64,000 bases of DNA from an uncultured Acidobacteriota bacterium (lineage in GTDB: Bacteria; Acidobacteriota; Polarisedimenticolia; J045): NCBI GenBank assembly GCA_963702425.1, contig CAVPCQ010000021.1, positions 1 to 64,000 of the forward strand. Reading direction: 5' to 3'. The notes beneath the pieces are model-generated. The model made no database searches and had not been told where the DNA came from. It saw only the letters and a list, made by a program, of their open reading frames with translations. Made by a program: the position numbers and the translations under genes. Positions 21,779 to 61,491 of the stretch are shown here, piece by piece; position 1 is the first letter of the stretch, and every line of letters begins with the position of its first letter.

Positions 21779-24700
21779 TCAGGGACAGCTCGTGCCCGTG
21801 CGCTCCACGCCCGCCGAGGAGAAGCCGAGCGTTCCCACGCCGCACGCGTTCCGCGCGCGGACGAGATAGAAGAACGCCGCCCCGGGTGCCGGAGCCTGTG
21901 TGGTGAGGACGAACGTCGTGCCCGCTTCGTTCTTGGCCAGGCACGTCCCGCTGTTGAAGGCCGTCGCGCCGCCGGCGCGCAGCAGATCGTAGCCGCTGAT
22001 CGTCTCGCCGGTGAGCGGGGCCCAGGCGGCAAGTGTCCGGCTGGGGAAGAACAGGCCGTTCACCTCCTGCGGCGTGACGTTCGGATCGTTGATCGGGTCG
22101 CAGGTCGGGAAATAGCCGAGACGCGACAGCGAGGACCAGCCCGTCGCCCAGTTCGTGCCGGGCGAGAAGGCGCCCTGGTAGGTGGCCGCCGAGAAGAACG
22201 CGCCTCCGACCGAGGAGTCGCGCGAGCTGGTGGCGATCGCGCTGCCGCCCTTGGGCCGCGGGTCGATCTTGATCACCGGATCCGGCTTGTCCGTCGCCGC
22301 CGTACCGCGAGTCAGAAGGTTGATCGGCACCGGGCTGGCGCAGGCCAGGTACTGGTTCTGGAGCGCGGAGGTGGTGAAGACGCCCGGGTCGTAGTAGGCC
22401 TTGGCCGCGTCGCAGCCGTAGGTCGCGCCCTGGTCCGCCGTCCCGTTCGGGATCGTGCTGCCGTTCCCGAAGCACCAGAAGGTGTTGTTCTTCAGCTCCA
22501 GCTGGAAGTCCGACGTCGGATCGAAGTAGTAGGTGCCCCAGCCCGCCCCGATCGGCGCCGGCGCGGCGGAGTTGTACGCCGTGCTGGCCCGCTGGCCGCT
22601 GGTGTTGTTGCCCGTCGGCGTGCCGGACGGCAGCGTGCCGCCCTCGATGCACATCGTCGCGCCGCCGAAGTCACCGAAGAAGCTGTTGTAGTAGCGGCCG
22701 CCGCCGTTGTCCCGCCAGTGCAGCGCCGTGTTCGTCAGCTTCGCCGTGTAGCTCGCCTTCGAGCCGAGACCGATGTAGGTCATGTTGTAGAGCGTCGGGA
22801 TCGAGAAGGGCTGCGAGCTGTCCCCGGTGTTGCCCCCGTCCTGCTCCGCACCCTTGTCCGACTTGTACGCGTTGTCGTCCTTCGCCAGGCCCTGCAGGAC
22901 CAGCCCGAACTGGAACTTCCCGCGCCAGCCCTCGTCGAAGTCCACCCCGTCGTCGCCGCCGTTGGTGCCGACGAAGTACTTGACCTCGGGAGCGCCGCCG
23001 AAGATCTCGACCAGGTCGTCGTTGGTCTGGTAGACCTCGAGGTGGTCGAGGTCGGTCGAGCGCCCGACGGCACCCAGCGTGATCCCGTTGATCTCGTTGT
23101 TGGCCGACAGGTTGAAGCCGCCGTAGCGGACCGAGACGTAGGACATCGAGCCGCTGTCGTCGTCGTCGCAGACCTTGCCGTACGGGGTCGGGTAGGCGGC
23201 GGCGCAGTTGCCGTAGAGCCCGAGGCCGCCGGCCGCGGTCAGCCCCTCGATCTGGATCTCCTTCGTCGGGTCCGGCCCGGCCGTCGTGTTGTTCGCCACG
23301 TAGCCCCGCCCGAGCAGGATCACCCCGCCCCAGTTGCCGGACAGGAACGCGGCGTTGGCGAGGTTGTCGTAGGGGTCGGTCCCCGGCTGCAGGCCGACGT
23401 TGTCGTCGTCGAGGTCGGTGAAGACGATCGGCTTGGCCGGCGTACCCAGTGCACGGATCTTGGACCCGCGGGAGATGACGAGCGTTCCCGGATCGACCGC
23501 GCCGGGCGTCGATTCCGGCTCACCGCGGATCACCGTCCCCGGCTCGATCGTCAGCGTCGCGCCACTCGTGACGTAGACCACCTGCTTGAGGATGTACTCG
23601 TTCTCCTGGGTCCACGTCGTGCTGGTCGAGATGTCGGCCGCCACGTCAACCAGCTGCTTGGCGGGGAAGTAGCCGAGGCGTGAGAGCGTGGTCCAGCCCG
23701 TCGCCCAGTTGTCGTTGGGGCCGAACGCGCCGCGATAGGAGACCTGCTCAAAGAAGCCGTCGTTCGGCGGGAGGCGGTCGGTCGTGAGCAGCGGGCTCCC
23801 CGCGGCCGGCCGCGGGTCGATCTTGATCACCGGGTCCGGCTTGTCGGAGGCCGCGACGCCGCGGGTCAGCTGGCGGATGGGCAGTGTCGCGTTGCAGTCC
23901 AGGTACTGGTTCTGCAGCGCCGCGTTCGTGAAGACGCCCGGGTCGTAGTAGGCCTTGGCCGCGTCGCAGCCGTAGGTCGCGCCCTGGTCCGCCGTCCCGT
24001 TCGGGATCGTGCTGCCGTTCCCGAAGCACCAGAAGGTGTTGTTCTTCAGCTCCAGCTGGAAGTCCGACGTCGGATCGAAGTAGTAGGTGCCCCAGCCCGC
24101 CCCGATCGGCGCCGGCGCGGCGGAGTTGTACGCCGTGCTGGCCCGCTGGCCGCTGGTGTTGTTGCCCGTCGGCGTGCCGGACGGCAGCGTGCCGCCCTCG
24201 ATGCACATCGTCGCGCCGCCGAAGTCACCGAAGAAGCTGTTGTAGTAGCGGCCACCGCCGTTGTCCCGCCAGTGCAGCGCCGTGTTCGTCAGCTTCGCCG
24301 TGTAGCTCGCCTTCGAGCCGAGACCGATGTAGGTCATGTTGTAGAGCGTCGGGATCGAGAAGGGCTGCGAGCTGTCCCCGGTGTTGCCCCCGTCCTGCTC
24401 CGCACCCTTGTCCGACTTGTACGCGTTGTCGTCCTTCGCCAGGCCCTGCAGGACCAGCCCGAACTGGAACTTCCCGCGCCAGCCCTCGTCGAAGTCCACC
24501 CCGTCGTCGCCGCCGTTGGTGCCGACGAAGTACTTGACGTTCGCCGCGCCGCCGAAGATCTCGACCAGGTCGTCATTGGTCTGGTAGACCTCGAGGTGGT
24601 CGAGGTCGGTCGAGCGCCCGACGGCGCCCAGCGTGATCCCGTTGATCTCGTTGTTGGCCGACAGGTTGAAGCCGCCGTAGCGGACCGAGACGTAGGACAT

Positions 24701-25291
24701 CGAGCCGCTGTCGTCGTCGTCGCAGACCTTGCCGTACGGGGACGGGTAGGCGGCGGCGCAGTTGCCGTAGAGCCCGAGGCCGCCGGCCGCGGTCAGCCCC
24801 TCGATCTGGATCTCCTTCGTCGGGTCCGGGCCGGCCGTCGTGTTGTTCGCCACGTAGCCCCGCCCGAGCAGGATCACCCCGCCCCAGTTGCCGGACAGGA
24901 ACGCAGCGTTGGCGAGGTTGTTGTAGGGGTTGGTCCCCGGATTGGCGCCGATGTTGTCGTCGTCGAGGTCGGTGAAGACGATCGGCTTGCCCGGCGTACC
25001 GAGCGCACGGATCTTGGAGCCGCGGGAGATGACGAGCGTCCCCGGATCGACCGCGCCGGGCGTTGATTCCGGCTCGCCGCGGATCACCGTCCCCGGCTCG
25101 ATCGTCAGCGTCGCGCCGTTCGTGACGTAGATGACCTTGGTCAGGATGTAGGTGTTGTTGGCCGTCCATGTCGTGCTGACCGAGATGTCGGCGGTCACGT
25201 TGACGTCGACCGCCAGGACCGGGGCGATCGTCGCGGCGAACAGTCCGGCCACCAAGGCCGCGCTCGCCAGGATCCTCTCTGTCTTCCTCAT
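21779..25291 (-). CDS. 1170-aa secreted protein: two near-identical ~518-aa predicted beta-helix-like domains plus the shared C-terminal domain
   Basis: GGAGAG RBS, ATG at 25291, signal peptide (VLA). Each unit has GATLTIEPGT, GTPxKPIVFT, WGGVILLG, DDSGSMSYV, NEINGITLGAVG, DDGVDFDEG. Confidence 0.85.
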   Translation of the reverse strand: MRKTERILASAALVAGLFAATIAPVLAVDVNVTADISVSTTWTANNTYILTKVIYVTNGATLTIEPGTVIRGEPESTPGAVDPGTLVISRGSKIRALGTPGKPIVFTDLDDDNIGANPGTNPYNNLANAAFLSGNWGGVILLGRGYVANNTTAGPDPTKEIQIEGLTAAGGLGLYGNCAAAYPSPYGKVCDDDDSGSMSYVSVRYGGFNLSANNEINGITLGAVGRSTDLDHLEVYQTNDDLVEIFGGAANVKYFVGTNGGDDGVDFDEGWRGKFQFGLVLQGLAKDDNAYKSDKGAEQDGGNTGDSSQPFSIPTLYNMTYIGLGSKASYTAKLTNTALHWRDNGGGRYYNSFFGDFGGATMCIEGGTLPSGTPTGNNTSGQRASTAYNSAAPAPIGAGWGTYYFDPTSDFQLELKNNTFWCFGNGSTIPNGTADQGATYGCDAAKAYYDPGVFTNAALQNQYLDCNATLPIRQLTRGVAASDKPDPVIKIDPRPAAGSPLLTTDRLPPNDGFFEQVSYRGAFGPNDNWATGWTTLSRLGYFPAKQLVDVAADISTSTTWTQENEYILKQVVYVTSGATLTIEPGTVIRGEPESTPGAVDPGTLVISRGSKIRALGTPAKPIVFTDLDDDNVGLQPGTDPYDNLANAAFLSGNWGGVILLGRGYVANNTTAGPDPTKEIQIEGLTAAGGLGLYGNCAAAYPTPYGKVCDDDDSGSMSYVSVRYGGFNLSANNEINGITLGAVGRSTDLDHLEVYQTNDDLVEIFGGAPEVKYFVGTNGGDDGVDFDEGWRGKFQFGLVLQGLAKDDNAYKSDKGAEQDGGNTGDSSQPFSIPTLYNMTYIGLGSKASYTAKLTNTALHWRDNGGGRYYNSFFGDFGGATMCIEGGTLPSGTPTGNNTSGQRASTAYNSAAPAPIGAGWGTYYFDPTSDFQLELKNNTFWCFGNGSTIPNGTADQGATYGCDAAKAYYDPGVFTTSALQNQYLACASPVPINLLTRGTAATDKPDPVIKIDPRPKGGSAIATSSRDSSVGGAFFSAATYQGAFSPGTNWATGWSSLSRLGYFPTCDPINDPNVTPQEVNGLFFPSRTLAAWAPLTGETISGYDLLRAGGATAFNSGTCLAKNEAGTTFVLTTQAPAPGAAFFYLVRARNACGVGTLGFSSAGVERTGTSCP
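22106..25200 (-). repeat. Intragenic tandem duplication, period 1554 bp
   Basis: gagatgtcgg at 23628 and 25182; ggtcgtagta at 22387 and 23941; the core is nearly identical in DNA. Confidence 0.95.
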
Positions 25292-25341
25292 GGCGTCTCT
25301 CCGGGTGGGCACACACTTGCTGGGCATTGCGACCGGATGGG

Positions 25342-25450
25342 ATGCTACGGGGGTCCTGTGACGGGCCTGTGACGAGCGCGGATCGGCGCTGCAAAATCCG
25401 CGGTCGAATCGCGTGACGAAGGAGTGACGGTCCTGTGACCGCGACGTGAC
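25342..25450 (-). promoter_or_regulatory. Pho-box-like (OmpR/PhoB family) array of six GTCAC half-sites in 11-bp phase, with a -10 element
   Basis: gtgac on + at 25358, 25369, 25413, 25424, 25435 and 25446; TAGCAT on - exactly 10 bp after the last half-site. Confidence 0.75.
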
Positions 25451-25458
25451 GCGGACAC

Positions 25459-28004: not shown

Positions 28005-28011
28005 GGGGCGG

Positions 28012-31129: not shown

Positions 31130-33568
31130 TCACCGGCCGTAATGCCCCCACGCGCTCTCGCCGCGCGGGCTGACACCGGTGACGAGGTACATCAGCAGCG
31201 GCGCGCTGGCCCCGTCCTCGAACACGGTGTCGGTGCGGTTCGGGTCCGACGCGCTGACGTCCGAGAAGGACGCCGCCGAGGCCGGGTCGGTGCCGCGGTA
31301 GACCCGGTAGGACGTGAGACCGGGGTAAGGCCACCAGTCGAGCACGACGTCCCCCCCGTGCCGCGTCACCGCGCGCAGGCGCATCTCCGGCGGCCTGGAT
31401 TCGAACGGCCGGCCGCAGACCTCGACCGACCAGTTGTTGAGCGTGCCCGAGTTCGCCGGCACGGCGTCGGTCACCTTCAGCGTCCACGTCCCTTGCGACC
31501 CCTCGCCGTTGAAGCGCGCCAGCGGCTCGGCCGGCGCGATCTGCGCGTCGTACCAGCCGACGATGTTGCTCCCCGAGCCCCCGGTCCGGTTGTGCAGCGC
31601 GACCGGCGTCCCCGCCGGCGAGATCGCGCTGACGGCGAGATCGCCCTTGTACGAGTGCGTGACGTTGACGTAGACGTTGACCTCGTCGAGCTCGACCTGG
31701 TTCGTGACGCTGATGCTCGAGGTGCGGGTGCTGCGGTCCGGGACGGGGATCGCGCCACCCGTCGAGTTGAACGTCGTGCAGGCCCGCGACCCGACCGGGA
31801 CGAAGAACGGGTCGGAGGTGCCGGTCTTCGACGAGGCCGTCCACTTGACCACGAAGCCGGCCTTGCTCCCCGTCGGGGCACTCGAGGCGAGCGACACCGA
31901 GTAGTGCGGCGGCTGCGACTGGGCGCTGGCGCCGACCGCGATCGCCGGGTAGGTCGCCGAGCTGCGGGGCACGGTCGCGGTCCAGCCGATCGGCTGCAGG
32001 ATCCCCGAGACGTTCGACGCGTACGCGCCCAGGTTGCGCAGGACGACCGCCATGTCGGTCGTCTCCCCCGGGTCGAGCACGCCGTTGCCGCCCGTGCCAT
32101 CCAGAATGGTGTAGCTCGTCGGCTGCAGGTCGACCGTCGTCGGCTGCATGGCGACGTCGCGCCGGGCCGCCGGTCCTCCGACCGGGACGACCACTTCGCG
32201 CAGGATCTCGGTCACGTGCCCGGAGGCGGACAGTTCCAGCGTGTAGGTTCCGGGCAGCACCAGCCGGTGGTAGTCCCCGACCTCCGGGTCGCCGTAGCTG
32301 TTGGCCGCGTTGCCGACGACCTTGACCGTCGCCTTCAGCGGCGCGCCGGTCGTCCCATCGGTCACAACCCCCCGTACCCCGTCCTGCACCCGCTCCAGGT
32401 AGGCCAGCATCGCCTCCCGGTTCTCTTCCCAGTAGCTCGGCAGTGACGAGGCGGCCGGCCACTTGGTGCCGATCTCCATCGTGATGTCCCACGTCCCGCG
32501 CCAGACGTAGTTCCAGTCCTGCATCCCGCCGCGGACGACGTACCAGTCGGCCCCGTTGCAGATCCCGTTGAAGAAGGAGCTGTCCGAGTTGTTGGCGAAC
32601 AGGCTCGGGTTCCGGTCAGCGTAGGTCCGCGCCAGCGAGACGAACGGCACGTCGTCCGGGCAGGCGCTGTAGACCGACGAGCCGCTCGCCGTGCCGTCGT
32701 AGGGGTAGTTCGCAATCAGCTCGCCGCCGTGGAAGTTGGCCGAGATGTTGACCGAGTGCGCGAAGCCCCAGTTCATCACCGCCTGGACCTCGAGCGGGCG
32801 CCCGGCCGGGCTGTCGACCGGATCGGTGAACTGGTCCGGGAAGCTGCGGTTGAGGTCATAGCCGTTGGCGTTGTAGCGCTGCCCCAGCTCGGTGCCGTCG
32901 GGGTTCATCGACGGCAGGATCCAGATCTCCGTCTCGTCCACCATCCGCTTGATCCGCGGATCGGTCGCGTAGTTGTCGACCAGCAGGTTGATCAGGCCGA
33001 TGCACAGCTCCTTGCCGACGACCTCGTCACCGTGGATCGCAGCGATGTAGCGGGCCGCCGGCTCATCCTCCGCCACGCCCGGGTTGTCGGAGACCTTCAT
33101 GATCCACAGCTCGCGCCCCTGCACCGACAGGCCGGCGCTGTAAAGCCGCACCAGGTCCGGGTGCGCCGCCGCGATCTGCTGCAGTTCCGAGGTCAGCGTG
33201 GCGTAGGTGTGGTACGAGGGCGGGATCGAGTCCGGCGCGGCCGGCGCGAGCGGGGCCTTGGCGGCGCGCTCGCGCTCCCACTGCAGGTGCGCCTCGTCGG
33301 CGACCTGCTCGACGTCGAACCCCAGCTCGCGCAGCTTCACCAGCTCCTTCTCGACCAGGTAGGCGCGCGCGCGGTCGAAGCGCACGCCGTCGACGTCGAT
33401 GTCCAGCTCCAGGAGCAGTCGGAGGTCCTCGACCCGGTCGCGCAGGCGGATCTCGACCGGGAAGACGGGGCCCGGCTCGCCCCGGCCGGCGGCGAGGCCG
33501 GCCGGCAGGGATCCGAGGAGCACGAGCAGCGCAACCAGGGCGAGGAGCGTCGTCTTCAAGGTCTTCAA
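31130..33568 (-). CDS. Secreted M14 zinc carboxypeptidase (N/E subfamily-like) with P-domain and the shared C-terminal domain
   Basis: IHGDE, MNPDG, RYNANGYDLNRSFP, NFHGG..ANYPYD, GGMQDWNY; P-domain THSYKGDL..GTWTLKVTD. Confidence 0.9.
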   Translation of the reverse strand: MKTLKTTLLALVALLVLLGSLPAGLAAGRGEPGPVFPVEIRLRDRVEDLRLLLELDIDVDGVRFDRARAYLVEKELVKLRELGFDVEQVADEAHLQWERERAAKAPLAPAAPDSIPPSYHTYATLTSELQQIAAAHPDLVRLYSAGLSVQGRELWIMKVSDNPGVAEDEPAARYIAAIHGDEVVGKELCIGLINLLVDNYATDPRIKRMVDETEIWILPSMNPDGTELGQRYNANGYDLNRSFPDQFTDPVDSPAGRPLEVQAVMNWGFAHSVNISANFHGGELIANYPYDGTASGSSVYSACPDDVPFVSLARTYADRNPSLFANNSDSSFFNGICNGADWYVVRGGMQDWNYVWRGTWDITMEIGTKWPAASSLPSYWEENREAMLAYLERVQDGVRGVVTDGTTGAPLKATVKVVGNAANSYGDPEVGDYHRLVLPGTYTLELSASGHVTEILREVVVPVGGPAARRDVAMQPTTVDLQPTSYTILDGTGGNGVLDPGETTDMAVVLRNLGAYASNVSGILQPIGWTATVPRSSATYPAIAVGASAQSQPPHYSVSLASSAPTGSKAGFVVKWTASSKTGTSDPFFVPVGSRACTTFNSTGGAIPVPDRSTRTSSISVTNQVELDEVNVYVNVTHSYKGDLAVSAISPAGTPVALHNRTGGSGSNIVGWYDAQIAPAEPLARFNGEGSQGTWTLKVTDAVPANSGTLNNWSVEVCGRPFESRPPEMRLRAVTRHGGDVVLDWWPYPGLTSYRVYRGTDPASAASFSDVSASDPNRTDTVFEDGASAPLLMYLVTGVSPRGESAWGHYGR

Positions 33569-33606
33569 GCCATCCTCCGCGGCGGACCTCAGGGACAATC
33601 CCTATC

Positions 33607-36600
33607 TTACGGGCAGACGCCCGAGCTGTTCTGGTTCCGCGGCCCCGTGGTCGCGTTACCGGCAGGCCCTTCGCCGCCGGCGTTCGCCGCGCGCACCAGG
33701 TACCAGTGCAGCCCGCCCGCCGGCGGCGCCTCCAGCAGCACCGGACCGGTGAACGGATCGGTCGTCGTCAGCCGCAGGCAGGAGTCGTTGGCCGCCGTGA
33801 CCAGCGCCGGCAGGTCGGCCCCGATGCCGCGGTAGAGCCGGTACGAGGTCGCGCCGGCGATCGGCTCCCACTGCTGGGCGGTCTTCCCGATCCAGGCCTG
33901 CTGGACCGGCTCGGCCGTCGGCGGGGCCGACAGGCAGTCGTTGCAGGCGTAGCCGGAACCGGTCGTCAGCTCGAGCGACCAGCCCGTGATCGTCCCGGTG
34001 TCGCTGCCCGCGGAGTCGACGGCCTTCAGCGTCCAGGTGCCGTTGGCCGCGATCCCGCTCAGCCCGCTCAGCGGGGCGTCCGGGATGAAGGAGCCGGTGA
34101 AGGGGGCGGTCCCGCTGGCGATCGGCGTCGTCGCCGCGTCGTCGAAGACCGTCTCGACGAAGTTGTCGCCGGACGAGCCGCGACGGTTCGAGAGCGCGAT
34201 CGGGACACCGTTGGGCCCGATCAGCGTGAGGGTCAGGTCGCCGTCATAGGTGTGCGTGATGTTGACCTTGACCTTCACCTTCTGGACCGGGTTCGTGTCG
34301 GTGACGACGATCGTGCTGCTCGCGCCGGTCGGATCGCTGTCCGGGATCGGCTTCGGAATGTCGATCGACGGGTAGGTGGTCGTGGCGTACGCCAGCGCAC
34401 CGACCTTCACCGTGAAGGGGCTGCTGAACGTCCCCTGGCTGGTCCGGACCGTCAGGACAAAGGCGATGTCGCTGCCGCACGGCACGCCCAGGCCCGCGAT
34501 GAAGCCGAAGTGGGGGACGACACTCGCCGCGGTCGCGTTGACCGCGAGATTCGGGTAGGTGGCGACCGCGCGCGTGACGTAGACATCCGGCGTGGTCGTG
34601 GTCAGCGTCGCCGAGACGCCCGCCAGGTCGATCGCGCCGTTGTTGCGGATCACGACCGGCAGCGTGACGTCGTCGCCGCGGTCGACGATTCCGTTGCCGT
34701 TGCCGGGGCCGCCCGCGGCGCAGGTATCGGCTGCCACGGAGAACGACTGGTAGACGGCCGACGGCCCGCAGACCCGCGGCTCGTAGGTGAACTGCAGGCT
34801 CCAGTCCTGGATCGTGCCCGAGTCGCCGGAGGCCGAGTCGACCACCTTCAGCTTCCAGGCGCCGCTCGCGACCTTGCCATTCACCGCGCTCAGCGGGTTC
34901 TCGGGGCGGTACGAGCCGCTGAACGGGGCCGTACCGCTGGCGATCGCCGTCGCGGCCGCGTCGTCGAAGATCGTGCCGGTGTAGTTGTCGCCGGACGAGC
35001 CGCGCCGGTTCGACAGGGCGATCGTCGTCCCGTCGGGGGCGACCAGGCTCAGCGAGTTGTCGCCATCGTAGGTGTGGGTGATGTTCACGACGACGTTCAG
35101 GTCGACGATCTTGTCGAGGTCGGCCACGTTGATCGTGCTCGTCGCGCCCGTCGCGTTGTTGTCCGGGATGGCGAGCGGCGTGTCCGTGCTGGTGTACGTG
35201 GCGTTCGTGTTCTGCAGGGTCGTGAAGAGGTAGTAGTTGCCGCCGTTGGTGTCCACCGTCGCGTTGCCGTGCGCGTCCACCGACTCGACCGCGTAGTAGT
35301 AGTTCGAGCAGGCGGCGAGCCCGGTCAGGGCCACGGCGTGACCGGTGACGAGGGCGCCGGCCGAGGTCGTCAGCCCCGGCGGGATCGCCGGCCCGTAGTG
35401 CACCACGCTGGTCGCCGCGTCGTCCGTCAGCCATTGGACCACCGCGCTGTTCCCCGTGACGCCCGACGCGAAGACGTTCGAGATCACCGGTGCATCGCAG
35501 TCGGTGCCGGCGGTGGTGCTGACCGGGACGTTGAAGTTCCCCTGGCCGTCGTCGGCGTCGAGGTAGGTGACCGTCAGCGTGTCCGCGTTCACGACGGAGA
35601 CGACGCCGTCGCCCGGGGAGGCCGGTGCGGCTGTCAGGGTGACCGTCCCCTGGAACCAGGTGTCGCGCGGCGCGGCGAGCCGCGTCAGGGTCACGCTCTC
35701 GCCGATCGTGTCGGTCTCGGAGGTCGCGGCGACCGTCAGCGTCGGCCCGGCGACGTTGGTGTCCTTGACGGTGATCGTTGCGCTGCCGGTGCAGCTATAG
35801 ACGTCGGCGTCCAGGCCGAGCTGCGCCCCGCAGGGCGCCGGCGGAAAGAGCAGCGTCAGGGACCAGTTGTCGATCGTCCCGGTATCGCTGCTCGCGTTGT
35901 CCACGACCTTCAGAGTCCAGTCGCCGTAGGACGCGATGCCGTTGAGGACGGCGAGCGGGCTTTCCGGCCGGAACGAGCCGGTGAACGGCGCCGTGCCCGC
36001 GGAGATCGCGGTCGCCGCGTCGTCGTCGAAGGCCGTGGCCAGGTAGTTATCGCCGGACGAGCCGCGCTTGGTCGAGAGCGGCACCGTGCGCCCGTCGGGC
36101 GCAATCAGCGTGAGGGCGATGTCACCGTCGAACGAGTGGGTGATGTTGACCGTCACGACGATCTTCGACACGTACTCGAAATACGGGACGTTGATCGTGG
36201 CGGTCGCGCCCGCCGCGCTGTTGTCGGGGATCGGCACGGCCGGACCGGCATACGGGTAGGTCGGGTTGGTGTTCGTGCCGGTGCGGAAGCTGTAATACGC
36301 GCCGCCGTTGGTGTCGGTCGTCGGGTTGCCGGCCGGGTCCGTCGACGTCACCGAGTAGTAGTAGGTCGTGCACGGGAGCAGGCCGGCCAGGTTGACGAGG
36401 TGGTTCACGGTCACGACGGCGCTCGATGCCGACCCCGCGACGGGCGGTGAGACGGTGTCGTACGTCACGGAAGCGGTCGACAGCTCGTCCGTGGTCCAGA
36501 CGACCTGGGCCGAGTTCCCGGTCACGTTCTGCGTCGCGACGGCCGAGATCATCGGGCCGGCGCAGTCGATCAGCGCAGTCGTCGTCACCGGCACGTTCAC

Positions 36601-38310
36601 GCCGCCGTTGCCGTCGTCCTCGTCGATGTAGAGCACGGTCACGACGTCGCCCGGGCGCACCGAAAGGTGCCCGTCGCCGTTGACCGGCGCGCCCGGGGTC
36701 ACCGGGAAGGTCCCGGTGAAGAAGCCGGACCCCGGCTCGGTGGCCGTCAGCACGACCGTCTCGGGCGCGGTCTCGGTGTTCGACGTGACGGTGACCGCCT
36801 GCGTCTCGTAGCCGCGCAGGTTGTCGTCGCGCAGCGTGATCAGGATCGTGTCGGTGCAGGCGTAGGTGGCGCTGTCGAGCGAGATCGACCCGGTCGGGTT
36901 GAAGGCGCAGACCACGCCGGCGACGCCGTCCATCGTCAACTGGCCGGTGACGTTCGGGTCCAGCCAGTCCGACAGACGGCTCGCGCTGGTGCCGCCACCG
37001 ATCCACGAGGCGTCGACCTTGCCGTACTCGTCGTAGGTGATGCTGGTGCACGACGCCGTGCCGCCGTGAAGCTGGCCGATGATGTGGTGGTTCTGGTCGA
37101 AGAGCGGCGAGCCGGAGGATCCGGGCTCGGTCGTCCCCTGCTCGTACTCCCCGATGCGCCAGTGGTTGGGGCCCCAGTTGCTGCCGTTCGTGGCCGGGTC
37201 GTCATCGTAGGCGATCTTCTTCACGTCGCCCCGCGGGTGGTGGATGACGGTGCTCTCGTTCGGGGGGGTCGTGCCGCGGTTCCAGCCGTTGTAGTAGGCG
37301 TTCCACGCCTCGAGCGGGCTGCCGTTCATCTGCAGCAGGGTGAAGTCGCTGCTGGCGTAGTTTGCCAGGACGGTCGCGCCGCTGACGGTCTGGGTGCTTG
37401 GAGGCGGCGGGTTGCCGCTCCCGCACGCCGAACGCTCGAAGTTGAACCCGAACACGGTGCTCGTGCCGGCATTGCAGTGGGCGGCGGTCAGGACGTAGGG
37501 CCGGCAGTCGTTGGCGGTCGTGTTGATCAGCGAGCCGGAGCAGAAGCCCTCGCCGCCGCTCAGCAGGATCACCGCGCCGCGCTTCTCGTTCTGCCAGTTT
37601 GCGCCGAGCGGACAGGCGACGTCGATGTTGCAGGAGCCGGAGTCGCCGATCCCCTTCTCGCCGGCCTTGGCCCGGCCGATCGTGCCGAACGGCAGGTAGC
37701 CGTGCGACACGGCGCCCAGGTGCAGCCGGGGCGCGACCCCCGCGAGCTTCGCGGGCCAGACCAGCTCGACGACGAGCTGGTCACCCTCGATCGGCGGCGT
37801 CCAGAGCTCGCCGTGGGGCCGGACGTCGGCGGCGGTGTACGAGCGCGGGCTCTTCAGCGCCGGGTCGTAGACGAAGAGGGTCGCCCCGTCCTCGATCCGG
37901 AACTCGTCGAAGCCCAGGACGATCCACAGCGCGTCGGCGGAGCGGACCGAGAGGCGCCAGATCCGGCCGCCGTCCTTCAGGTCCTCCCAGGTGCCGCTGC
38001 TCGCGGGCGAGAGGTCGGTCGCCATCCGGTAGCCGATCCGCAGCGGCGTCCCGAGCTTCCCGTCGCGGGTCGCGTCCTCCCGCAGCAGCTTCGGGACGTC
38101 GACCGGCGGCGACGTCCATGCGGCCACCTCGCCCAGGGGCTTGAGGCCTTCGCGCGCCGGCGAAACCGGCATCGCGGACCCGTCCGCGAGCGCGACGACC
38201 TGCAAGGCCGCCGACGCGAGCAGCGCGAGCAGTCCGGCGGCGGCACGGGACGGGCGGATCAGGCGGGACGGACGGACGGAGCGGGAACCTGGAGCCTGCC
38301 TGCGTGTCAT
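33607..38310 (-). CDS. Secreted lysyl endopeptidase-like serine protease with Fn3-like domains, three P-domains and the shared C-terminal domain
   Basis: CSGSLIN, LTAAHC, DFTLL, TEPGSSGSPLF, GQLHGG..DEYGK..RLSDWLDP; three ITH(S/T)xDGD..GxWxLKxVD units. Confidence 0.9.
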   Translation of the reverse strand: MTRRQAPGSRSVRPSRLIRPSRAAAGLLALLASAALQVVALADGSAMPVSPAREGLKPLGEVAAWTSPPVDVPKLLREDATRDGKLGTPLRIGYRMATDLSPASSGTWEDLKDGGRIWRLSVRSADALWIVLGFDEFRIEDGATLFVYDPALKSPRSYTAADVRPHGELWTPPIEGDQLVVELVWPAKLAGVAPRLHLGAVSHGYLPFGTIGRAKAGEKGIGDSGSCNIDVACPLGANWQNEKRGAVILLSGGEGFCSGSLINTTANDCRPYVLTAAHCNAGTSTVFGFNFERSACGSGNPPPPSTQTVSGATVLANYASSDFTLLQMNGSPLEAWNAYYNGWNRGTTPPNESTVIHHPRGDVKKIAYDDDPATNGSNWGPNHWRIGEYEQGTTEPGSSGSPLFDQNHHIIGQLHGGTASCTSITYDEYGKVDASWIGGGTSASRLSDWLDPNVTGQLTMDGVAGVVCAFNPTGSISLDSATYACTDTILITLRDDNLRGYETQAVTVTSNTETAPETVVLTATEPGSGFFTGTFPVTPGAPVNGDGHLSVRPGDVVTVLYIDEDDGNGGVNVPVTTTALIDCAGPMISAVATQNVTGNSAQVVWTTDELSTASVTYDTVSPPVAGSASSAVVTVNHLVNLAGLLPCTTYYYSVTSTDPAGNPTTDTNGGAYYSFRTGTNTNPTYPYAGPAVPIPDNSAAGATATINVPYFEYVSKIVVTVNITHSFDGDIALTLIAPDGRTVPLSTKRGSSGDNYLATAFDDDAATAISAGTAPFTGSFRPESPLAVLNGIASYGDWTLKVVDNASSDTGTIDNWSLTLLFPPAPCGAQLGLDADVYSCTGSATITVKDTNVAGPTLTVAATSETDTIGESVTLTRLAAPRDTWFQGTVTLTAAPASPGDGVVSVVNADTLTVTYLDADDGQGNFNVPVSTTAGTDCDAPVISNVFASGVTGNSAVVQWLTDDAATSVVHYGPAIPPGLTTSAGALVTGHAVALTGLAACSNYYYAVESVDAHGNATVDTNGGNYYLFTTLQNTNATYTSTDTPLAIPDNNATGATSTINVADLDKIVDLNVVVNITHTYDGDNSLSLVAPDGTTIALSNRRGSSGDNYTGTIFDDAAATAIASGTAPFSGSYRPENPLSAVNGKVASGAWKLKVVDSASGDSGTIQDWSLQFTYEPRVCGPSAVYQSFSVAADTCAAGGPGNGNGIVDRGDDVTLPVVIRNNGAIDLAGVSATLTTTTPDVYVTRAVATYPNLAVNATAASVVPHFGFIAGLGVPCGSDIAFVLTVRTSQGTFSSPFTVKVGALAYATTTYPSIDIPKPIPDSDPTGASSTIVVTDTNPVQKVKVKVNITHTYDGDLTLTLIGPNGVPIALSNRRGSSGDNFVETVFDDAATTPIASGTAPFTGSFIPDAPLSGLSGIAANGTWTLKAVDSAGSDTGTITGWSLELTTGSGYACNDCLSAPPTAEPVQQAWIGKTAQQWEPIAGATSYRLYRGIGADLPALVTAANDSCLRLTTTDPFTGPVLLEAPPAGGLHWYLVRAANAGGEGPAGNATTGPRNQNSSGVCP

Positions 38311-38508
38311 GAGCGCCCCTCTCACTGGACGAAACCCCACACTTCACCCGCGACGGAGCCGCGAGCCCAAAACTCCGGTGAAAGGTCCGGTTCCTGGCGC
38401 GTCGCGGCAAGGCAGAATCTGGCGGGGTCGCGCGGCCCGATCGGGCGCGGTGTCTTACCCGCGTAACGCGCGAGGTGCCTCCCCCTGTCCCCTATACTCC
38501 GCCCCGCC

Positions 38509-41137: not shown

Positions 41138-41269
41138 TGCCGCCTCCGGGCACACGGTACCACCGGCAAGGGTTCCGGGGTGGTCCGCGGCGGTTCGAGT
41201 TCGCGTCCGCCGCAGTTCGTATTCGCGCCTGCGCCCGGCGCCCGCGATCCGGGCCCTACATTCGACGTG

Positions 41270-43159
41270 ATGAGACTCGTCGCCCGCATCGCGCCGTTCG
41301 CCCGCATCGCCCGGGAGTTCGCCCTGGCGGGCGTCCTGCTCGCGGTCGCGGTCGCAGCCGCGGGCGGGACCGCGCCGGTCCGCGCGGCCGTCCAGCCCCC
41401 CGTCCTGAAATGGCAGAAGGGTGGCTGCTTCTCGAGCTGGTGCGAGACCGGCTGGTACTCGTCGCCCGCCGTCGCCGACCTCGACCGCGACGGCACGCCG
41501 GAGGTGATCGCTTCCGCCTACTCGATCGTCGCCCTCGACGGCCGCACCGGCGCGCTGGAGTGGCGGATCAGCTCGGGCCACGACCGCTCCCAGCCCGGCG
41601 CGTCGAACGTCGGCCGGACCTGGCCGGGGATCGTCGCTGCCGACCTCGACGGCGACGGCAGCGTCGAGATCGCCGCTGCGCACTCCGGCGGCTGGGTCTC
41701 GGTCTACGACGCGCAGGGCTACTTCAAGGCCGGCTGGCCGCGCCAGCCGACGACCTCCGAGCTGCGCGGCCTCGCCGTCCACGACCTCGATGGAGACGGC
41801 CGGCTGGAGGTGATCGTCACCGCGGCGATCGGCTCGCAGACCAACACGTGGATCTACAGCGCCGGGGGCGTGCTGCGCGCCGGCTGGCCGCAGCTCGCGA
41901 GCGGTGCGCCGGGCTACGCCTGGGGCGTCTACAACGCCAACGCCGCCGCCGGCGACCTGGACGGCGACGGCACCGGCGAGATCGTCGTCCCCTCCGATGT
42001 CCACTACCTCTGCGCCTACGAGGCCAACGGCCAGCCGATCCCGGCCAGCACCGTCTTCGGTGCCGGAAAAGTCTGGGGCCAGGTGGGCGTGTGGGAGAGC
42101 CAGGTCCCCGAGCTGCGCGGATGGGGCGCCTGCGACGGCGTGCGCGCCGAGAGCTACCGCACCAACTTCGCCGACGGCGCGGCGGTGCTGGCGGACCTCG
42201 ACGGCGACGGCACGCTCGAGGTCGTCGTCACCGGCAACACCTACGACTGCTCGCGCGATCCGTACCTCAGCCGCTACCACGGCGTGCACCTTTTCAACCG
42301 CGACCGCAGCCGCTACAACAAGGCGGGCCGCGACTGGCGCTCGCCCCCGGTCGACACCGGCGCGCCGATAGCGGAGGACTACAACACGATCGAGTCGGCC
42401 GAGCCGAACCCTGCCGTCGCCGACCTCGACGGCGACGGGACGAAGGAGATCGTCTACAGCGCGTACGACGGCCGCGTGCACGCCTTCTGGCTGGACAAGA
42501 CCGAGCACGGGAGCTGGCCCTACGCGATCTACCGCACAGCGGACGGCTTCTTCCGCTTCGCTTCCGAGCCGGCGATCGCCGACCTCGACGCCGACGGCAA
42601 GGCCGAGGTGATCGTCGCCTCCTGGACGCAGAAGGGGAGCAACGCCTACGGCCGGCTCACGATCCTCTCGTGGGACGGCAAGCTGCTGCAGCAGGTCGAC
42701 CTCCCCGCGCCGTTCGGCGGCGGCGACTGGAACGGCGCGCTGGCCGGCCCGACGCTGGCCAACCTCGACGGCGACGCGGACCTCGAGGTGGTGCTCAACA
42801 CGGCGCACAGCGGCCTCGTCGCCTACGACCTGCCCGGCACGGCCGGCGCGCGCGTGCTGTGGGGCTCCGGGCGCGGCGGGTTCCTGCGCGGCGGGGCCTG
42901 CGCGCAGCCGCGGCCGGCCGAGATCCGCGACTCGCTGCACGTCACGCGGAGCGGCACGGCCGACATCCGCCTCGCGTGGGGCGCGGCGGCGGGCGCGATC
43001 AGCTACCGCGCGTACCGCTCGACTTCGGCGCAGATGAGCGGCGCGACGCGGATCGGCGAGACGGCGGCGCTCGTCCTGCTCGATCTCGGCGCGCAGCGGG
43101 ACGGCGTCCGGGCGGTCTTCTACCAGGTGCGCGGCGCCAACGGGTGCGGGGTGGAGTAG
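41270..43159 (+). CDS. Secreted FG-GAP/VCBS-repeat protein with a shortened shared C-terminal domain
   Basis: Signal peptide; eight DLDxDG..E(V/I) repeats; ends FYQVRGANGCGVE. Confidence 0.88.
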   Translation: MRLVARIAPFARIAREFALAGVLLAVAVAAAGGTAPVRAAVQPPVLKWQKGGCFSSWCETGWYSSPAVADLDRDGTPEVIASAYSIVALDGRTGALEWRISSGHDRSQPGASNVGRTWPGIVAADLDGDGSVEIAAAHSGGWVSVYDAQGYFKAGWPRQPTTSELRGLAVHDLDGDGRLEVIVTAAIGSQTNTWIYSAGGVLRAGWPQLASGAPGYAWGVYNANAAAGDLDGDGTGEIVVPSDVHYLCAYEANGQPIPASTVFGAGKVWGQVGVWESQVPELRGWGACDGVRAESYRTNFADGAAVLADLDGDGTLEVVVTGNTYDCSRDPYLSRYHGVHLFNRDRSRYNKAGRDWRSPPVDTGAPIAEDYNTIESAEPNPAVADLDGDGTKEIVYSAYDGRVHAFWLDKTEHGSWPYAIYRTADGFFRFASEPAIADLDADGKAEVIVASWTQKGSNAYGRLTILSWDGKLLQQVDLPAPFGGGDWNGALAGPTLANLDGDADLEVVLNTAHSGLVAYDLPGTAGARVLWGSGRGGFLRGGACAQPRPAEIRDSLHVTRSGTADIRLAWGAAAGAISYRAYRSTSAQMSGATRIGETAALVLLDLGAQRDGVRAVFYQVRGANGCGVE

Positions 43160-48646: not shown

Positions 48647-48728
48647 CGATTCCTGTGACATTACGCAAGCCGATGCGGTGCAACGGGCGCACTCTAGCCG
48701 AGCCCGGTCCCTTTCCGTGGAGGCGATC

Positions 48729-51242
48729 ATGTCCCAAGTCCCGCTCCGCCGCGCTCGGCATTCCGCCGGCCCGTCCCTGCTCGCCGTCCTGTCGATCCTG
48801 GCACTCGCACTCCTGCTCCCCCACGCGTCGGCAGGGCCGGGCGGCACCGGCTACACGCTCGTCGGCTGGAACGACCTCGGCATGCACTGCATGGACGCCG
48901 ACTTCTCCGTCTTCTCGATCCTGCCGCCGTTCAACACGATCCACGCGCAGCTGATCGACGCGCGAGGGAACCTGGTCGTCAACCCGGGCGGGATCACGAT
49001 CACCTACCAGGCGGTGGCCGACCCGCAGGGCTCGTTCAACTCGACCTCGAAGGACAAGACCAACTTCTGGCAGTACGTGAAGCCGATCTACGGCGCCGAC
49101 CTCGCGGTCGACCACGGACTCGCGGGCCAGGCGATGCCGGGCCTCTCGAACACTCCCCAACCGATGTCGTTCGACGCGGTGCAGGCCTGGTTCTCGGCGG
49201 TCGGGATCCCGATCACGCCCACCGACGACCATGGCACGAAGAACGCCTACCCGATGATGCGGCTCACCGCGCGCGACGCGTCGGGGGCGGTGCTGGCCAC
49301 GACCGACATCGTGCTGCCGGTGTCGGACGAGATGGACTGCCGAGCCTGTCACGGCTCGAACAGCAACGGGGACGCGCGGCCGCGCGGCGGCTGGGTCAAC
49401 AACCCGGACCCGCAGATCGACTACCGCCTCAACATCCTGTTGCTGCACGACGACCGGCGCGACAACCGGACCAAGTACGAGCAGACGCTGACGGCGGCGG
49501 GCTACAACACGGGCGGCCTCTACGCAACCGCGCACGACGACGGCCATCCGATCCTCTGCGCGGCCTGTCACCCCTCGAACGCGCTGCCGGGGAGCGGGCA
49601 GGCCGGGATGCCGCAGCTGACGCACTCGGTCCATTCCATCCACGACAACGTCCAGGACCCGCTGACGGGCATGACGCTGGGCCAGAGCGCCAACCGCTCG
49701 GCCTGCTACCGCTGCCACCCCGGCTCGGCGACCCGCTGCCTGCGAGGCGCGATGGGCGCCTCCGTCGCCGCCGACGGCACGATGGCGATGCAGTGCCAGA
49801 GCTGCCACGGCACGATGAGCGAGGTCGGCTCGACCGCCCGCACGGGCTGGCTCGATCAGCCCGCCTGCCAGAACTGCCACAGCGGCGACGCGATGGCCAA
49901 CGCCGGGCAGATCCGGTACACGACCGCGTTCCTGCCGAACGGCACGCGCCGCCAGCCCGCGAACCAGCGGTTCGCCACCAACCCGAACGTCCCCGCTCCG
50001 GGCTTCGATCTCTACCGCTTCTCCTACGGGCACGGCGGGGTGGCCTGCGAGGCGTGCCACGGCTCGACGCACGCCGAGTATCCGGCCGCCCACGGCAACG
50101 ACAACGTGCAGAGCGTCAAGCTGCAGGGGAATGTGGGTGTCCTGTCGGACTGCCGGACGTGCCACAACCGCAACCCGGGCACGGTGACGGGCGGCCCGCA
50201 CGGCATGCACCCGGTCGGGCAGTCGTGGGTCGGGGATCACCCCGACGCCGCGGAGGACGGCGGGGCGGGACGCTGCAAGGCCTGCCACGGCAGCGACTAC
50301 AAGGGGACCGTCCTTTCGCTCGCGCTCGGCGACCGCCAGCTCAGCTCGGACTTCGGCAAGCGCAACTTCTGGCGCGGCTTCCGGATCTCCTGCTACGCCT
50401 GCCACAACGGACCGGATTCCGAGAGCGCGACGAACAACCGTGCTCCCACGGTCAGCGACGTGACGGTGACGGTCACGCCAGGCACGCCGCGCACCGTCGC
50501 GTTGAGCGGCACGGACAAGGACAAGAACCAGACCCTGACCTTCCGCGTGATCACCCAGCCGCAGCACGCGAGCGTCGGCATCACCGGGACCACGGCGACG
50601 ATCTTCCCCGACGCCGGCTATCTGGGGAACGACAGCTTCACCTTCGCCGCCTGGGACGGCCTGACCGACTCGAATCTCGGCACGGCCACGCTGACCGTCA
50701 GCGGGCAGGGCTGCCGGCTGACGTGCGCGGCGACCGTCCCGGCCGGCGCCGGCGAGGGTGCGAGCGTCTCCTTCCAAGGGAACGCGACCGCCAACGGCTG
50801 CACCGCGGCGCCCCAGTACGCGTGGGCCTTCGGCGACGGCCAGAACGGCACCGGCTCGCTGATCCAGCACGCCTATCCCCTGTCCGGCAGCTACGCCTGG
50901 ACGATGACCGCCAGCGCCGACGGGACCTCCTGCAACAGCTCCGGCTCGATCACGGTCGCGGGCGCGCCGCCGGCGATCACGAAGATCAGCAAGTCGGGAG
51001 GCAACTCCTTCAAGCTCGCCGTGACCGGCACCAACTTCCACAGCCGGTTGGCGGTCACGATCGCCGGCCAGCTCTGGACCGACGTCAAGTGGAAAAGCGC
51101 GACCTCGATCACCCTGAAGGGCGGCAAGGCTCTCAAGGCCCTGTTCCCCAAGAAGACCTGGGTGCCGGTGGCGATCACCAACCTCGACGACGGGCTCTCG
51201 GACACCGTGCAGTACAACGTGTCAACGAATAAGATCCAGTGA
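48729..51242 (+). CDS. Secreted nonaheme c-type cytochrome with Ig-like/PKD domains and a Lys-rich C-terminal domain
   Basis: Signal peptide; 9 CxxCH (CRACH, CAACH, CYRCH, CQSCH, CQNCH, CEACH, CRTCH, CKACH, CYACH); PKD YAWAFGDG. Confidence 0.9.
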   Translation: MSQVPLRRARHSAGPSLLAVLSILALALLLPHASAGPGGTGYTLVGWNDLGMHCMDADFSVFSILPPFNTIHAQLIDARGNLVVNPGGITITYQAVADPQGSFNSTSKDKTNFWQYVKPIYGADLAVDHGLAGQAMPGLSNTPQPMSFDAVQAWFSAVGIPITPTDDHGTKNAYPMMRLTARDASGAVLATTDIVLPVSDEMDCRACHGSNSNGDARPRGGWVNNPDPQIDYRLNILLLHDDRRDNRTKYEQTLTAAGYNTGGLYATAHDDGHPILCAACHPSNALPGSGQAGMPQLTHSVHSIHDNVQDPLTGMTLGQSANRSACYRCHPGSATRCLRGAMGASVAADGTMAMQCQSCHGTMSEVGSTARTGWLDQPACQNCHSGDAMANAGQIRYTTAFLPNGTRRQPANQRFATNPNVPAPGFDLYRFSYGHGGVACEACHGSTHAEYPAAHGNDNVQSVKLQGNVGVLSDCRTCHNRNPGTVTGGPHGMHPVGQSWVGDHPDAAEDGGAGRCKACHGSDYKGTVLSLALGDRQLSSDFGKRNFWRGFRISCYACHNGPDSESATNNRAPTVSDVTVTVTPGTPRTVALSGTDKDKNQTLTFRVITQPQHASVGITGTTATIFPDAGYLGNDSFTFAAWDGLTDSNLGTATLTVSGQGCRLTCAATVPAGAGEGASVSFQGNATANGCTAAPQYAWAFGDGQNGTGSLIQHAYPLSGSYAWTMTASADGTSCNSSGSITVAGAPPAITKISKSGGNSFKLAVTGTNFHSRLAVTIAGQLWTDVKWKSATSITLKGGKALKALFPKKTWVPVAITNLDDGLSDTVQYNVSTNKIQ

Positions 51243-59800: not shown

Positions 59801-60136
59801 CTCGAGGCGCTGCACAACGCGGCGAAGTACGCCGAGGCGTCGCGCGTGACGCTGTCGCTCGCGCCGGCGGCGGGCGGGCGCTGGACGCTGGCGGTCGAGG
59901 ACGACGGGGTCGGGATCGCCGCACCCGGGCTGCTCGCCGCGGCGGACGAGGACGACGCCGCGCCGCACGGCCACGGCCTGCCCGGGATGCGGCGTCGGGC
60001 CGCGGAGATCGGCGCGGAGCTGGCGATCGGGCCGGGCGCGGGCGGGCGCGGGACCCGCGTCGCGCTGACCTTCGACCCGGCGCGGCCGACCCGCATGATC
60101 ATGCGGTCGACCGGCCGGCCGCTGGAAGGAGAATGA
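56897..60136 (+). CDS. Sensor histidine kinase with periplasmic two-component beta-propeller and Y_Y_Y-like domain; several apparent frameshifts, start uncertain
   Basis: YTVADGL..EDSRGFLWFCT repeats; RIAMDLHDELGSGL H-box; EALHNAAKYA, VEDDGVG, GHGL. Confidence 0.8.
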
Positions 60137-60828
60137 CCGCCGTGAGCCTGCGCGTCGCGATCTTCGAGGACGATCCCGGCTACCGCGAGGGGCTGGCGGC
60201 GCTGCTGCGCTTCGCGCCCGGCTTCGAGCTGGTCGGCGTCTACGGGGCCGCCGCGTCCGCGGTCCGGGCGGCGGAGCAGGCCGCGGAGCGCGGCGAGCCG
60301 TGCCCGTGGGAACTGGTCCTCTCGGACATCGAGATGCCCGGGATGAGCGGGATCGAGGCCTGCCGCCGGCTCAAGGAGGCCTACCCCGGCCTGCCGGTGA
60401 TCGTGCTGACCGTCTTCGAGGAGCCGGCGACGATCCTCGACGCGATCCGGGCCGGCGCGGACGGCTACCTGCTCAAGCGCAGCACCGCGCCCGAGCTGCT
60501 GGCCGGGCTGCGCGCGATCGCGGGGGGCGGCTCGCCGCTGACGGCGGGCGTCGCGCGCTCGGTGCTGGAGCTGCTGCGGCAGGGCGAGGGCGGCGGCGCG
60601 ACGACCGGACCGGCATCGACCACCGCCCCGCAGCGCCTCGAGCTGGGCGAGCGCGAGCAGGAGGTCCTGCGCGGCCTGGTCCGCGGCGGGACCTACGCCC
60701 AGATCGCCGACGAGATGGGGATCAGCCTCGACACCGTCCGCGGCCACATCCGCTCGATCTACCGCAAGCTCCAGGTCAACAGCGCGAAGGCCGCGGTCTC
60801 GCGCGCGGTCCGCGAGCGGCTGGTCTGA
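60133..60828 (+). CDS. NarL/LuxR-family response regulator
   Basis: FEDD, LSDIEMPG, GADGYLLK, REQEVL..IADEMGISLDTVRGHIRSIYRKL. Confidence 0.93.
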   Translation: MTAVSLRVAIFEDDPGYREGLAALLRFAPGFELVGVYGAAASAVRAAEQAAERGEPCPWELVLSDIEMPGMSGIEACRRLKEAYPGLPVIVLTVFEEPATILDAIRAGADGYLLKRSTAPELLAGLRAIAGGGSPLTAGVARSVLELLRQGEGGGATTGPASTTAPQRLELGEREQEVLRGLVRGGTYAQIADEMGISLDTVRGHIRSIYRKLQVNSAKAAVSRAVRERLV

Positions 60829-60938
60829 GCAGGTCCCGCGCGGCCGGCTAACTGCCGCTTTCGCAGACCCGCATCTTCATGCCGGTGCCGCCGCGCTCCG
60901 CGACGGGACACTCCTCCCGTCTCGTGGAGGAGCCTCGG

Positions 60939-61491
60939 ATGCGCCCGGTCGTCGTTGCCGTCCTGCTCGCAGGTGCCGCTCTCGCCGGCGGTACCGGCCC
61001 TCGCCCAGCAAAGCGCCAGCTACAAGCTGACCGAGAGCGCCGTCAACGCCGGCGGCCGCCCCGTCAACGGCGCGGGCGCCTCGTCCGCCAGCTACCGCGT
61101 CAGCTTCGACGCGATCGGCGACGCGGTCGCCGGCGGGGCGCCGTCGAGTGCCTCGTACCGGCTGGGCTCGGGTTTCGTGTCCTGGTTCCCGCCCCCGGGT
61201 GAGGCCAAGGGGCTGCGCTTTTCCGACCGGACCACGCTGCGCTGGGACCCGGAGCCGTCGGTCGGCACCTACAACCTGTATCGCGACTTCGTCTCCGCCC
61301 TTGCCGGCGGCGGGACGGGCACCTGTTTCGTGAATGGTGTCTCCACCGAGCAGGCGTCCGACGCGGGGAGTCCCGGCGCCGGCAAGGGCTTCTTCTACCT
61401 CGTCACCGCGAAGAACCGGCTTGCCGAGGAAGGGACCAAGGGGAAACGCAGCAGCGGCACTGAGCGCCCGAACGCGGCGCCGTGCCCGTGA
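60939..61491 (+). CDS. Small secreted protein: SASY-repeat N-domain plus the shared C-terminal domain; apparent frameshift near 60985
   Basis: GGAGG RBS and ATG at 60939; signal peptide split across frames; SASY x3; ends FFYLVTAKN..GTERPNAAPCP. Confidence 0.75.

Follow-up and report, generated by a model that had tools for sequence, protein, structure and literature searches.

The domain and its five carriers in the window

The DNA analysed here (the window) is a stretch of 64,000 nucleotides, C21:1-64000, from the assembly GCA_963702425.1 of an uncultured Acidobacteriota bacterium of the class Polarisedimenticolia (5.10 Mb, 42 contigs, 91% complete, 5.85% contaminated). It encodes five secreted proteins with different cargo which end in the same domain of about 90 residues, and these tails belong to a family that is large, conserved and unannotated in the Pfam and NCBIfam collections searched. 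A sequence-only reading of the window had noticed the tails and proposed that they are a tag for an export or anchoring pathway. Translation places all five proteins and their tails at the positions given in that reading, and the tails align over about 90 residues as it had said, sharing the invariant residues P, E, W, Y, R, Y and V. The common pattern is present in all five, while the full Cys...Cys-Pro type is present in just three of them, the other two being short variants.

The tails were delimited by translation and by searches with a hidden Markov model (HMM). One tail of the full type closes a two-repeat secreted protein (tail 21779..22081, minus strand), whose gene at about 21779-25327 on the minus strand heads a TonB-dependent receptor operon. 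The HMM match covers residues 1540-1621 of the 1625-residue frame with 66.7 bits and ends 3 residues before the stop; this tail is also the top row of the alignment A2 described below and the sequence used for folding. The second tail, of the Cys...Cys-Pro type, is carried by a trypsin-like peptidase with three P_proprotein domains (tail 33607..33909, minus strand; HMM match to residues 1488-1572 of 1578; gene at about 33607-38325, minus strand), and the third, of the same type, by a small protein with SASY[KR]L repeats (tail 61189..61491, plus strand), whose reading frame spans 60955-61491 on the plus strand by translation. The tail of the small protein obtained the highest score among the copies in the genome (86.6 bits with the iterated HMM) and is also the top A2 match in its own genome.

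The two short variants end shortly after strand F, without the C-terminal extension. One is found on an M14 carboxypeptidase (tail 31130..31420, minus strand; HMM match to residues 749-820 of 823; gene 31130-33598, minus strand), which ends in ...WGHYGR, has no Cys staple and carries the Pfam families Peptidase_M14, CarboxypepD_reg and P_proprotein. The other is found on an FG-GAP repeat protein (tail 42887..43159, plus strand; HMM match to residues 900-963 of 965; gene at about 41180-43159, plus strand; Pfam FG-GAP_3), which ends in ...NGCGVE and has a cysteine just before strand A. The M14 carrier has orthologues, about 800 residues long, in metagenome-assembled genomes (MAGs) of Acidobacteriota and Candidatus Polarisedimenticolaceae, and the orthologues listed, at least 120, are of one length and one lineage. 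Pfam identified no family on the cargo of the two-repeat protein or of the small protein. The stretches translated for this comparison include 21779-25222 for the two-repeat protein, 33607-38340 for the trypsin-like peptidase and 41270-43159 for the FG-GAP protein. In the public record the two-repeat protein (P0279) has a precomputed Pfam match, PF28492.1, which probably describes the cargo repeat, since it is absent from the records of the other tail carriers.

The signal peptides noted in the sequence-only reading are in-frame in four of the five carriers. In the small protein, a signal-peptide-like start (MRPVVVAVLLAGAALA...) at 60939..60990 on the plus strand, with the ATG at 60939, was seen by three-frame translation in a frame that differs from that of the body. 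A frameshift or else an error in the assembly accounts for the difference; in the paralogues of the small protein the signal peptides are in-frame.

Number and position of the copies in the genome

We translated the whole genome into 40,447 stop-to-stop frames of at least 60 residues and searched them with an HMM made from the five tails alone, which yielded 88 domains in 78 frames (E<=1e-3), members outside the seed scoring down to E 1e-23. Four more rounds converged on 135 domains in 114 frames. Identical frames lie on separate contigs (C1/C25, C13/C14, C3/C41), consistent with the 5.85% contamination or with duplication, and the per-genome counts are thus slightly too high. The dozens of copies anticipated from the five tails were found and exceeded, with dozens to more than 100 matches per genome.

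Out of the 114 carrier frames, 103 have their last copy no more than 20 residues from the stop, while 11 have only internal or N-terminal copies; the strictly C-terminal placement expected for a tag is thus the prevailing arrangement and not a universal one. In addition, 32 of the 135 copies are internal, so that the domain is not always the last one, as is the C-terminal domain (CTD) of type IX secretion systems (T9SS). Sixty-five of the 103 terminal copies end exactly in Cys-Pro, and at least 80 end in proline (CP 65, GP 7, LP 3, TP 3, AP 2). Among 31,207 frames of at least 80 residues, 131 end in CP and 65 of these contain the domain; of the 3,774 genes in a crude set, 59 have a CP end, 48 of them with the domain, and several of the 11 CP-ending genes without a domain match resemble more divergent members. 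As a control, the canonical Pfam fn3 domain has 10 matches in the same genome, none of which is terminal, each lying at least 102 residues before the stop.

This distribution argues for a true C-terminal sorting signal. An outer-membrane translocon or a sortase-like enzyme would read the domain in the periplasm and maybe remove it, the outcome being secretion or covalent surface attachment, as with the T9SS CTD in Bacteroidota. The position at the extreme end, the exact Cys-Pro stop and the control, in which canonical fn3 is never terminal, all favour this explanation, which we consider possible but, set against the findings on internal copies and machinery given below, rather doubtful.

Cargo and export of the carriers

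To describe the cargo, we removed the tails and clustered the 96 remaining parts by single-linkage BLAST, which gave 49 clusters, 42 of them singletons. Tail subtypes are spread over the clusters, subtype a being found on 22, b on 9 and c on 8. Tails on unrelated cargo indicate that the domain has been shuffled among genes and not merely duplicated along with them, a further point in favour of a sorting signal.

Pfam was run on 53 representative carriers, at least one per cluster outside the window. The cargo comprises peptidases (Trypsin_2 and, three times, Peptidase_S8), glycoside hydrolases (GH10, GH39, GH44), other enzymes (GDSL lipase, Beta-lactamase, GSDH), repeat or adhesin-like proteins (Kelch, BNR, PD40, Beta_helix, VWA, Cohesin) and proteins of unknown kind (DUF362, DUF7034/7035), and 27 of the 53 representatives have no Pfam family at E<=1e-6. 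The tail is often preceded by TSP_3 repeats, which the genome matches 75 times, and by MopE-like Cys motifs. On the window's own contig, a 434-residue carrier (C21:103386-104687; locus L035) joins two cohesin-like domains and a MopE-like Cys motif to the terminal domain.

A crude script detected signal-peptide-like starts in 57 of the 96 carrier frames, compared with 166 of 600 coding-like background frames, and a second version gave 57/96 and 182/600; both versions miss obvious cases and the figures are a lower bound. Among the 39 frames missed, 11 have an obvious signal by eye, and in the other 28 the start could not be fixed. Of the expectation that nearly all carriers have Sec signals, an enrichment is seen, with 28 of the 96 starts left unfixed. 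The window also encodes a TonB-dependent receptor, ExbB, ExbD and TonB, and the receptor genes imply that the cell has an outer membrane.

Fold and family placement

For the alignment A2, the five tails of the window were joined by 20 from other contigs (n=25); W20, C47, P64, Y72, G86 and C99 are its near-invariant positions. The tails gave no Pfam match, either in the five window proteins or in the 53 representative carriers, and Pfam fn3 (PF00041) matched none of the 25 A2 tails even at E<=1. Likewise, NCBIfam, including TIGR04183/Por_Secre_tail, returned nothing relevant on the five proteins (E<=0.01) or the 25 tails (E<=1). A full-text search of the literature gave no description of the terminal domain, and the passages retrieved from the article that describes Polarisedimenticolia (PMC8528874) name no C-terminal domain.

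For the two-repeat protein's tail, the pLDDT of the AF2 model averages 78.5 and drops to about 70 over the last 20 residues. With Foldseek, all listed matches in the Protein Data Bank (PDB) are Fn3 domains or Fn3-containing proteins (E 6e-3 to 0.25, TM about 0.5). With VIA-align, run against 48,161 chains, the best match is the Fn3 domain of CtXyl5A (Z 6.9, rmsd 2.7 over 72 residues), followed by 3mpc, and each of the top 25 rows is an Fn3 domain or a receptor that bears one; the Z values are middling, and the fold call thus rests on consistency and not on one strong match. Searched against solved structures, the A2 profile matched the C. thermocellum Fn3-like protein 3mpc (E 2.1e-5), 5g56 (4.9e-4) and chitinase A1 (1k85; 0.011).

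Searched against 1.84 billion representative proteins, the same profile yielded 21,678 matches at E<=1e-3, the top ones with 10-43 tandem stretches each, covering profile positions from about 8 to 90. The tandem-array matches checked (P0006, P0008, P0060, P0123) are Pfam fn3 proteins, the fn3 match of P0006 reaching E 2e-162. Full-length matches that include the staple were found internally in the TSP_3-repeat proteins P0046, P0051 and P0071. As judged from profile and model, the core of the tail is a divergent domain of the Fn3 superfamily, with its seven-stranded beta-sandwich, and not a new fold; what sets the tail family apart is its extension, its cysteine pair and its terminal habit.

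Among the outcomes that the sequence-only reading had named as damaging to its own proposal is that the tails are ordinary Fn3 domains also found internally or in tandem. Part of this is the case: the profile cross-matches Fn3 arrays, the predicted fold is Fn3 and internal copies exist, but 103 of the 114 carrier frames have the domain at their end. An ordinary Fn3 spacer without a shared role, i.e. an abundant local variant whose terminal position is a by-product of gene assembly, would account for the links in fold and profile to ordinary bacterial Fn3 modules and for the thousands of representative proteins matched with tandem Fn3 arrays on top. However, there is nothing to space at the very end of a protein, and the terminal bias compared with canonical fn3 (103/114 against 0/10), the exact Cys-Pro stop and the conservation across classes point to selection for the terminal position; we regard such a spacer as very unlikely.

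Paired cysteines and internal copies

Cysteines were scored in all copies aligned to the model, near column 36 (mid-domain) and after the FG loop (tail). Out of the 103 terminal copies, 80 have both cysteines, 18 have neither and 5 are discordant (Fisher p 2e-15, a value that is overstated because the copies are kin and not independent). The co-occurrence lends statistical support to the disulfide that had been suspected from the internal cysteine and the terminal CP of the window tails: a bond between the mid-domain cysteine and the penultimate one probably pins the C-terminal extension back onto the sandwich. For a second candidate pair, the cysteine before strand A and the FG-loop cysteine, no association was seen in the aligned copies.

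Internal copies are present in about a tenth of the carrier proteins. Both cysteines are found in 14 of the 32 internal copies, with DxDxDG-type TSP_3 repeats directly after them, and thus neither the fold nor the paired cysteines require a free C-terminus. This speaks against a sorting signal, as does the existence of several tail subtypes, some of them short and without Cys-Pro. A frame of 1,674 residues (C30:45155-50176; locus L074) has a signal peptide and four copies within a very long TSP_3 array, which is followed by about 340 residues without a known family; its product looks like an extracellular-matrix protein.

The same cysteines, together with the terminal proline, would also suit a structural end cap without any partner, in which a disulfide-locked Fn3 domain ending in proline stabilises multidomain exoproteins and blocks their C-terminal trimming in a protease-rich setting; M14 carboxypeptidases and many endopeptidases are secreted by the organism itself. 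Most carboxypeptidases handle a C-terminal proline poorly. In accordance with such a cap, the proline ends described above occur whatever the subtype, the tail cysteine goes with the mid-domain one, and the carriers include secreted M14, S8 and trypsin-like peptidases. The cap leaves unexplained, however, the internal copies with both cysteines, the conservation of distinct extension subtypes across classes and the need for a whole 90-residue domain where a short capped tail would suffice, and the M14 enzyme's own tail ends in Arg. As the whole function of the domain we consider it improbable.

Phyletic range

A2 matches were found in 41 of 41 relatives, all of one class and belonging to 29 genera in 13 families; each relative has 7 to at least 124 matches, which are not equal to copy numbers. 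One of the 41 (G034) is flagged as unpublished, and the result holds without it. Furthermore, 81 genomes sampled evenly across the phylum, including G062, which is also flagged as unpublished, were surveyed at E<=1e-5. The domain was matched in 19 of them, with at least six matches in 11 and one to four in 8, and in 62 there was no match. The 11 domain-rich genomes are the present one (G000), five others of its class and five from outside the class (G042, G043, G060, G061, G106). In the latter five, 29 of the 30 best loci have a terminal copy that lies within 14 residues of the stop, and CP is the end of 20 of the 31 terminal copies.

The tail of the small protein, compared with genome records, gave 12 loci, 11 in MAGs labelled Acidobacteria, Acidobacteriota or Polarisedimenticolia and one in a Dongiaceae MAG (L122), which hints that the tail also occurs outside the phylum; in 11 of the 12 the sequence runs ...CP and then stops. 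The nearest ESM Atlas clusters are Acidobacteriota where named. Among the genomes searched, a single-phylum sample, the expansion is confined to part of the Acidobacteriota, and the lineage restriction predicted from the window is seen in that only 11 of the 81 genomes have at least six matches. All relatives have matches, tens to over 100 per genome, the expansion is limited to a minority of the sampled phylum genomes, and the terminal habit is kept in other classes and in 11 of the 12 MAG loci, all of which again favours a sorting signal.

Search for export and anchoring machinery

The genome was searched in six-frame translation, at its 91% completeness, for components of known export and anchoring systems. 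Por_Secre_tail, SprA_N (PF14349) and SlipAM had no match, and the control genomes were silent too, which makes these three negatives weak. Exosortase_EpsH had no match in the genome, one control genome being positive, and Secretin had two matches, six control genomes being positive. Replacement by an exosortase/PEP-CTERM system was considered and dropped, as Exosortase_EpsH was found in 20 of the 81 phylum genomes, namely in 2 of the 11 domain-rich and 18 of the 70 others, with no anticorrelation.

In one secretin (C37:277118-279670; L109:11119-13671), a lipobox-like start and an N-terminal TPR region are combined with a long Pro/Ala linker and, at the C-terminus, a cohesin-like domain. Its gene belongs to an operon like those of type II secretion systems (T2SS) and MSHA, together with genes for T2SS-F, a T2SS-E ATPase carrying MshEN, a PilM-like protein and a pseudopilin. 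In 34 of the 81 phylum genomes such a cohesin-like end occurs, mostly in frames of about 750-970 residues. As a dock for the carriers this secretin was likewise dropped, since its tail domain occurs in 7 of the 11 domain-rich genomes, compared with 27 of the 70 others, and was not found in the domain-rich G042, G060, G061 and G106. A dockerin/cohesin arrangement was also looked for: the genome has four cohesin-like matches in three frames and no multi-cohesin scaffold, and instead of a dockerin signature no Pfam family of any kind was seen on the tails.

With respect to a sorting signal, the missing Por_Secre_tail, SprA_N, SlipAM and exosortase matches count against it, weakly for the three families on which the controls are silent, and so does the fact that neither the exosortase nor the cohesin-tailed secretin follows the domain-rich genomes. 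Thus, what stands of the tag for an export or anchoring pathway is a shared terminal module of exported proteins, whereas no export or processing machinery was found among the families searched.

Genomic neighbourhood of the carriers

With the exception of the two-repeat protein gene, the carrier genes of the window are scattered among unrelated genes. The two-repeat gene stands first in a minus-strand series at 13862-25327, followed by genes for a TPR protein, the TonB-dependent receptor, DUF3450, ExbB, ExbD and TonB, a layout which, by analogy, recalls a surface capture protein ahead of an importer.

Next to the small protein, a protein of 664 residues of no known family is encoded at 61627..63621 on the plus strand, given here as context and not as evidence of machinery. 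Searches with it gave no Pfam family, one weak unknown family in PHROGs and no solved relative by sequence. A small SASY-repeat carrier and a protein of 660-900 residues of no known family form a conserved gene pair (in the window 60955-63621, plus strand), with paralogous pairs in the genome at C1:8196-10912, C17:135354-138613 and C19:62106-64138. In relatives the two genes are adjacent, in either order, in 6 of 12 loci (L111, L112, L114-L117), and the partner proteins have conserved N-terminal INYQGVL... and C-terminal ...VAKALE... ends. The window also encodes, at 48678-51242 on the plus strand, a multihaem cytochrome resembling MtrC/MtrF, which is fused to Big_9 and PKD domains and does not carry the terminal domain.

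Interpretation and comparison with known systems

Our preferred reading, held tentatively and at somewhat less than an even chance, is that the tail is a shared, uncleaved extracytoplasmic retention or assembly module which also caps the C-terminus. The carrier would be exported by Sec, and the domain would fold and become oxidised outside the cytoplasm. The common uncleaved end module would then hold enzymes and adhesin-like proteins on a shared envelope or matrix ligand, and the Cys-Pro end may in addition shield the C-terminus against carboxypeptidases. In this scheme we infer the extracytoplasmic location, the binding partner and the protective role. A retention module is ranked first because copies with both cysteines also occur internally, because binding and spacer modules make up the superfamily, and because the search for machinery was negative. 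The scale of the family, its spread over unrelated cargo, the Fn3 links, the paired cysteines, the export signals and the habit shared with other classes are likewise in its favour. A sorting signal comes second because a binding module would need neither so strong a terminal bias nor so exact an end.

Several points weigh against a retention module. No ligand or receptor is known for the domain, and the terminal bias of about 90% and the exact Cys-Pro stop fit a recognised C-terminal signal equally well. The subtypes differ mostly in the extension, so that one shared ligand is not obvious, and two of the five window tails are without the staple and the terminal proline. Moreover, the disulfide is deduced from co-occurrence, the pLDDT of the model's last 20 residues being only about 70, and the signal-peptide estimate is crude, with starts that could not be fixed in 28 of the 96 frames.

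The boldest form of the sorting explanation, in which the domain is the address label of an undescribed system that sorts proteins or attaches them to the surface in diderm Acidobacteriota (Polarisedimenticolia with a few allied classes), appears to us unlikely, though worth stating for what it would imply. About 2-3% of the proteome would be marked for outer-membrane passage or fixation by a domain that works like the T9SS CTD or the Slam cargo domain and is unrelated to both, and the subtypes could match different receptors. A true sorting tag would mean that a major phylum, mostly uncultured, has a new route of secretion or anchoring.

Returning to the retention module, a single unannotated module on about 100 exported proteins per genome offers a ready-made marker of the exoproteome and a handle for finding whatever retains or sorts the carriers. 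Even on a modest reading a family model is warranted, as the carriers are now annotated by their cargo alone. According to PMC8528874, marine sediments commonly harbour Polarisedimenticolia and related Acidobacteriota, which presumably live on proteins and polymers, and secreted peptidases are mentioned for these bacteria.

Among known systems, the T9SS CTD (type A, TIGR04183/Por_Secre_tail; type B, CHU_C) resembles the tail in that one beta-sandwich, about 80-100 residues long, closes many unrelated Sec-exported proteins, with tens to more than 100 carriers per genome and a lineage-restricted expansion. It differs in that the tails have no NCBIfam match, copies are also internal here, the fold matches are to Fn3, and the genome has no SprA_N match, a family on which the controls are silent. 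No CTD structure is among the listed fold matches, although some likeness may exist. The PPC domain (PF04151) is likewise a C-terminal beta-sandwich on secreted hydrolases of Gram-negative bacteria, but no tail has a Pfam match and the cargo here is far wider than peptidases.

The closest matches by profile and fold are the bacterial Fn3 modules (3mpc, 5g56 of CtXyl5A, 1k85 of chitinase A1). The Trp motif of strand B and the Tyr motifs of strands C and F appear to be common to both, at positions which we take to be canonical for the Fn3 core. In contrast, those modules are internal linkers, whereas the tail family is terminal, has a Cys-stapled extension ending in Cys-Pro and escapes Pfam fn3.

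In distribution, the type I dockerin offers a parallel: one small module, mostly C-terminal, is placed on dozens of unrelated exoenzymes per genome. A dockerin is a calcium-binding helical pair while the tail is a beta-sandwich, no scaffold with receptor repeats was seen in this genome, and the present organism has an outer membrane. The pattern is nevertheless the one expected of a shared assembly or retention module, and the holding role proposed for the tail would, by analogy, be that of the dockerin and of the SLH module.

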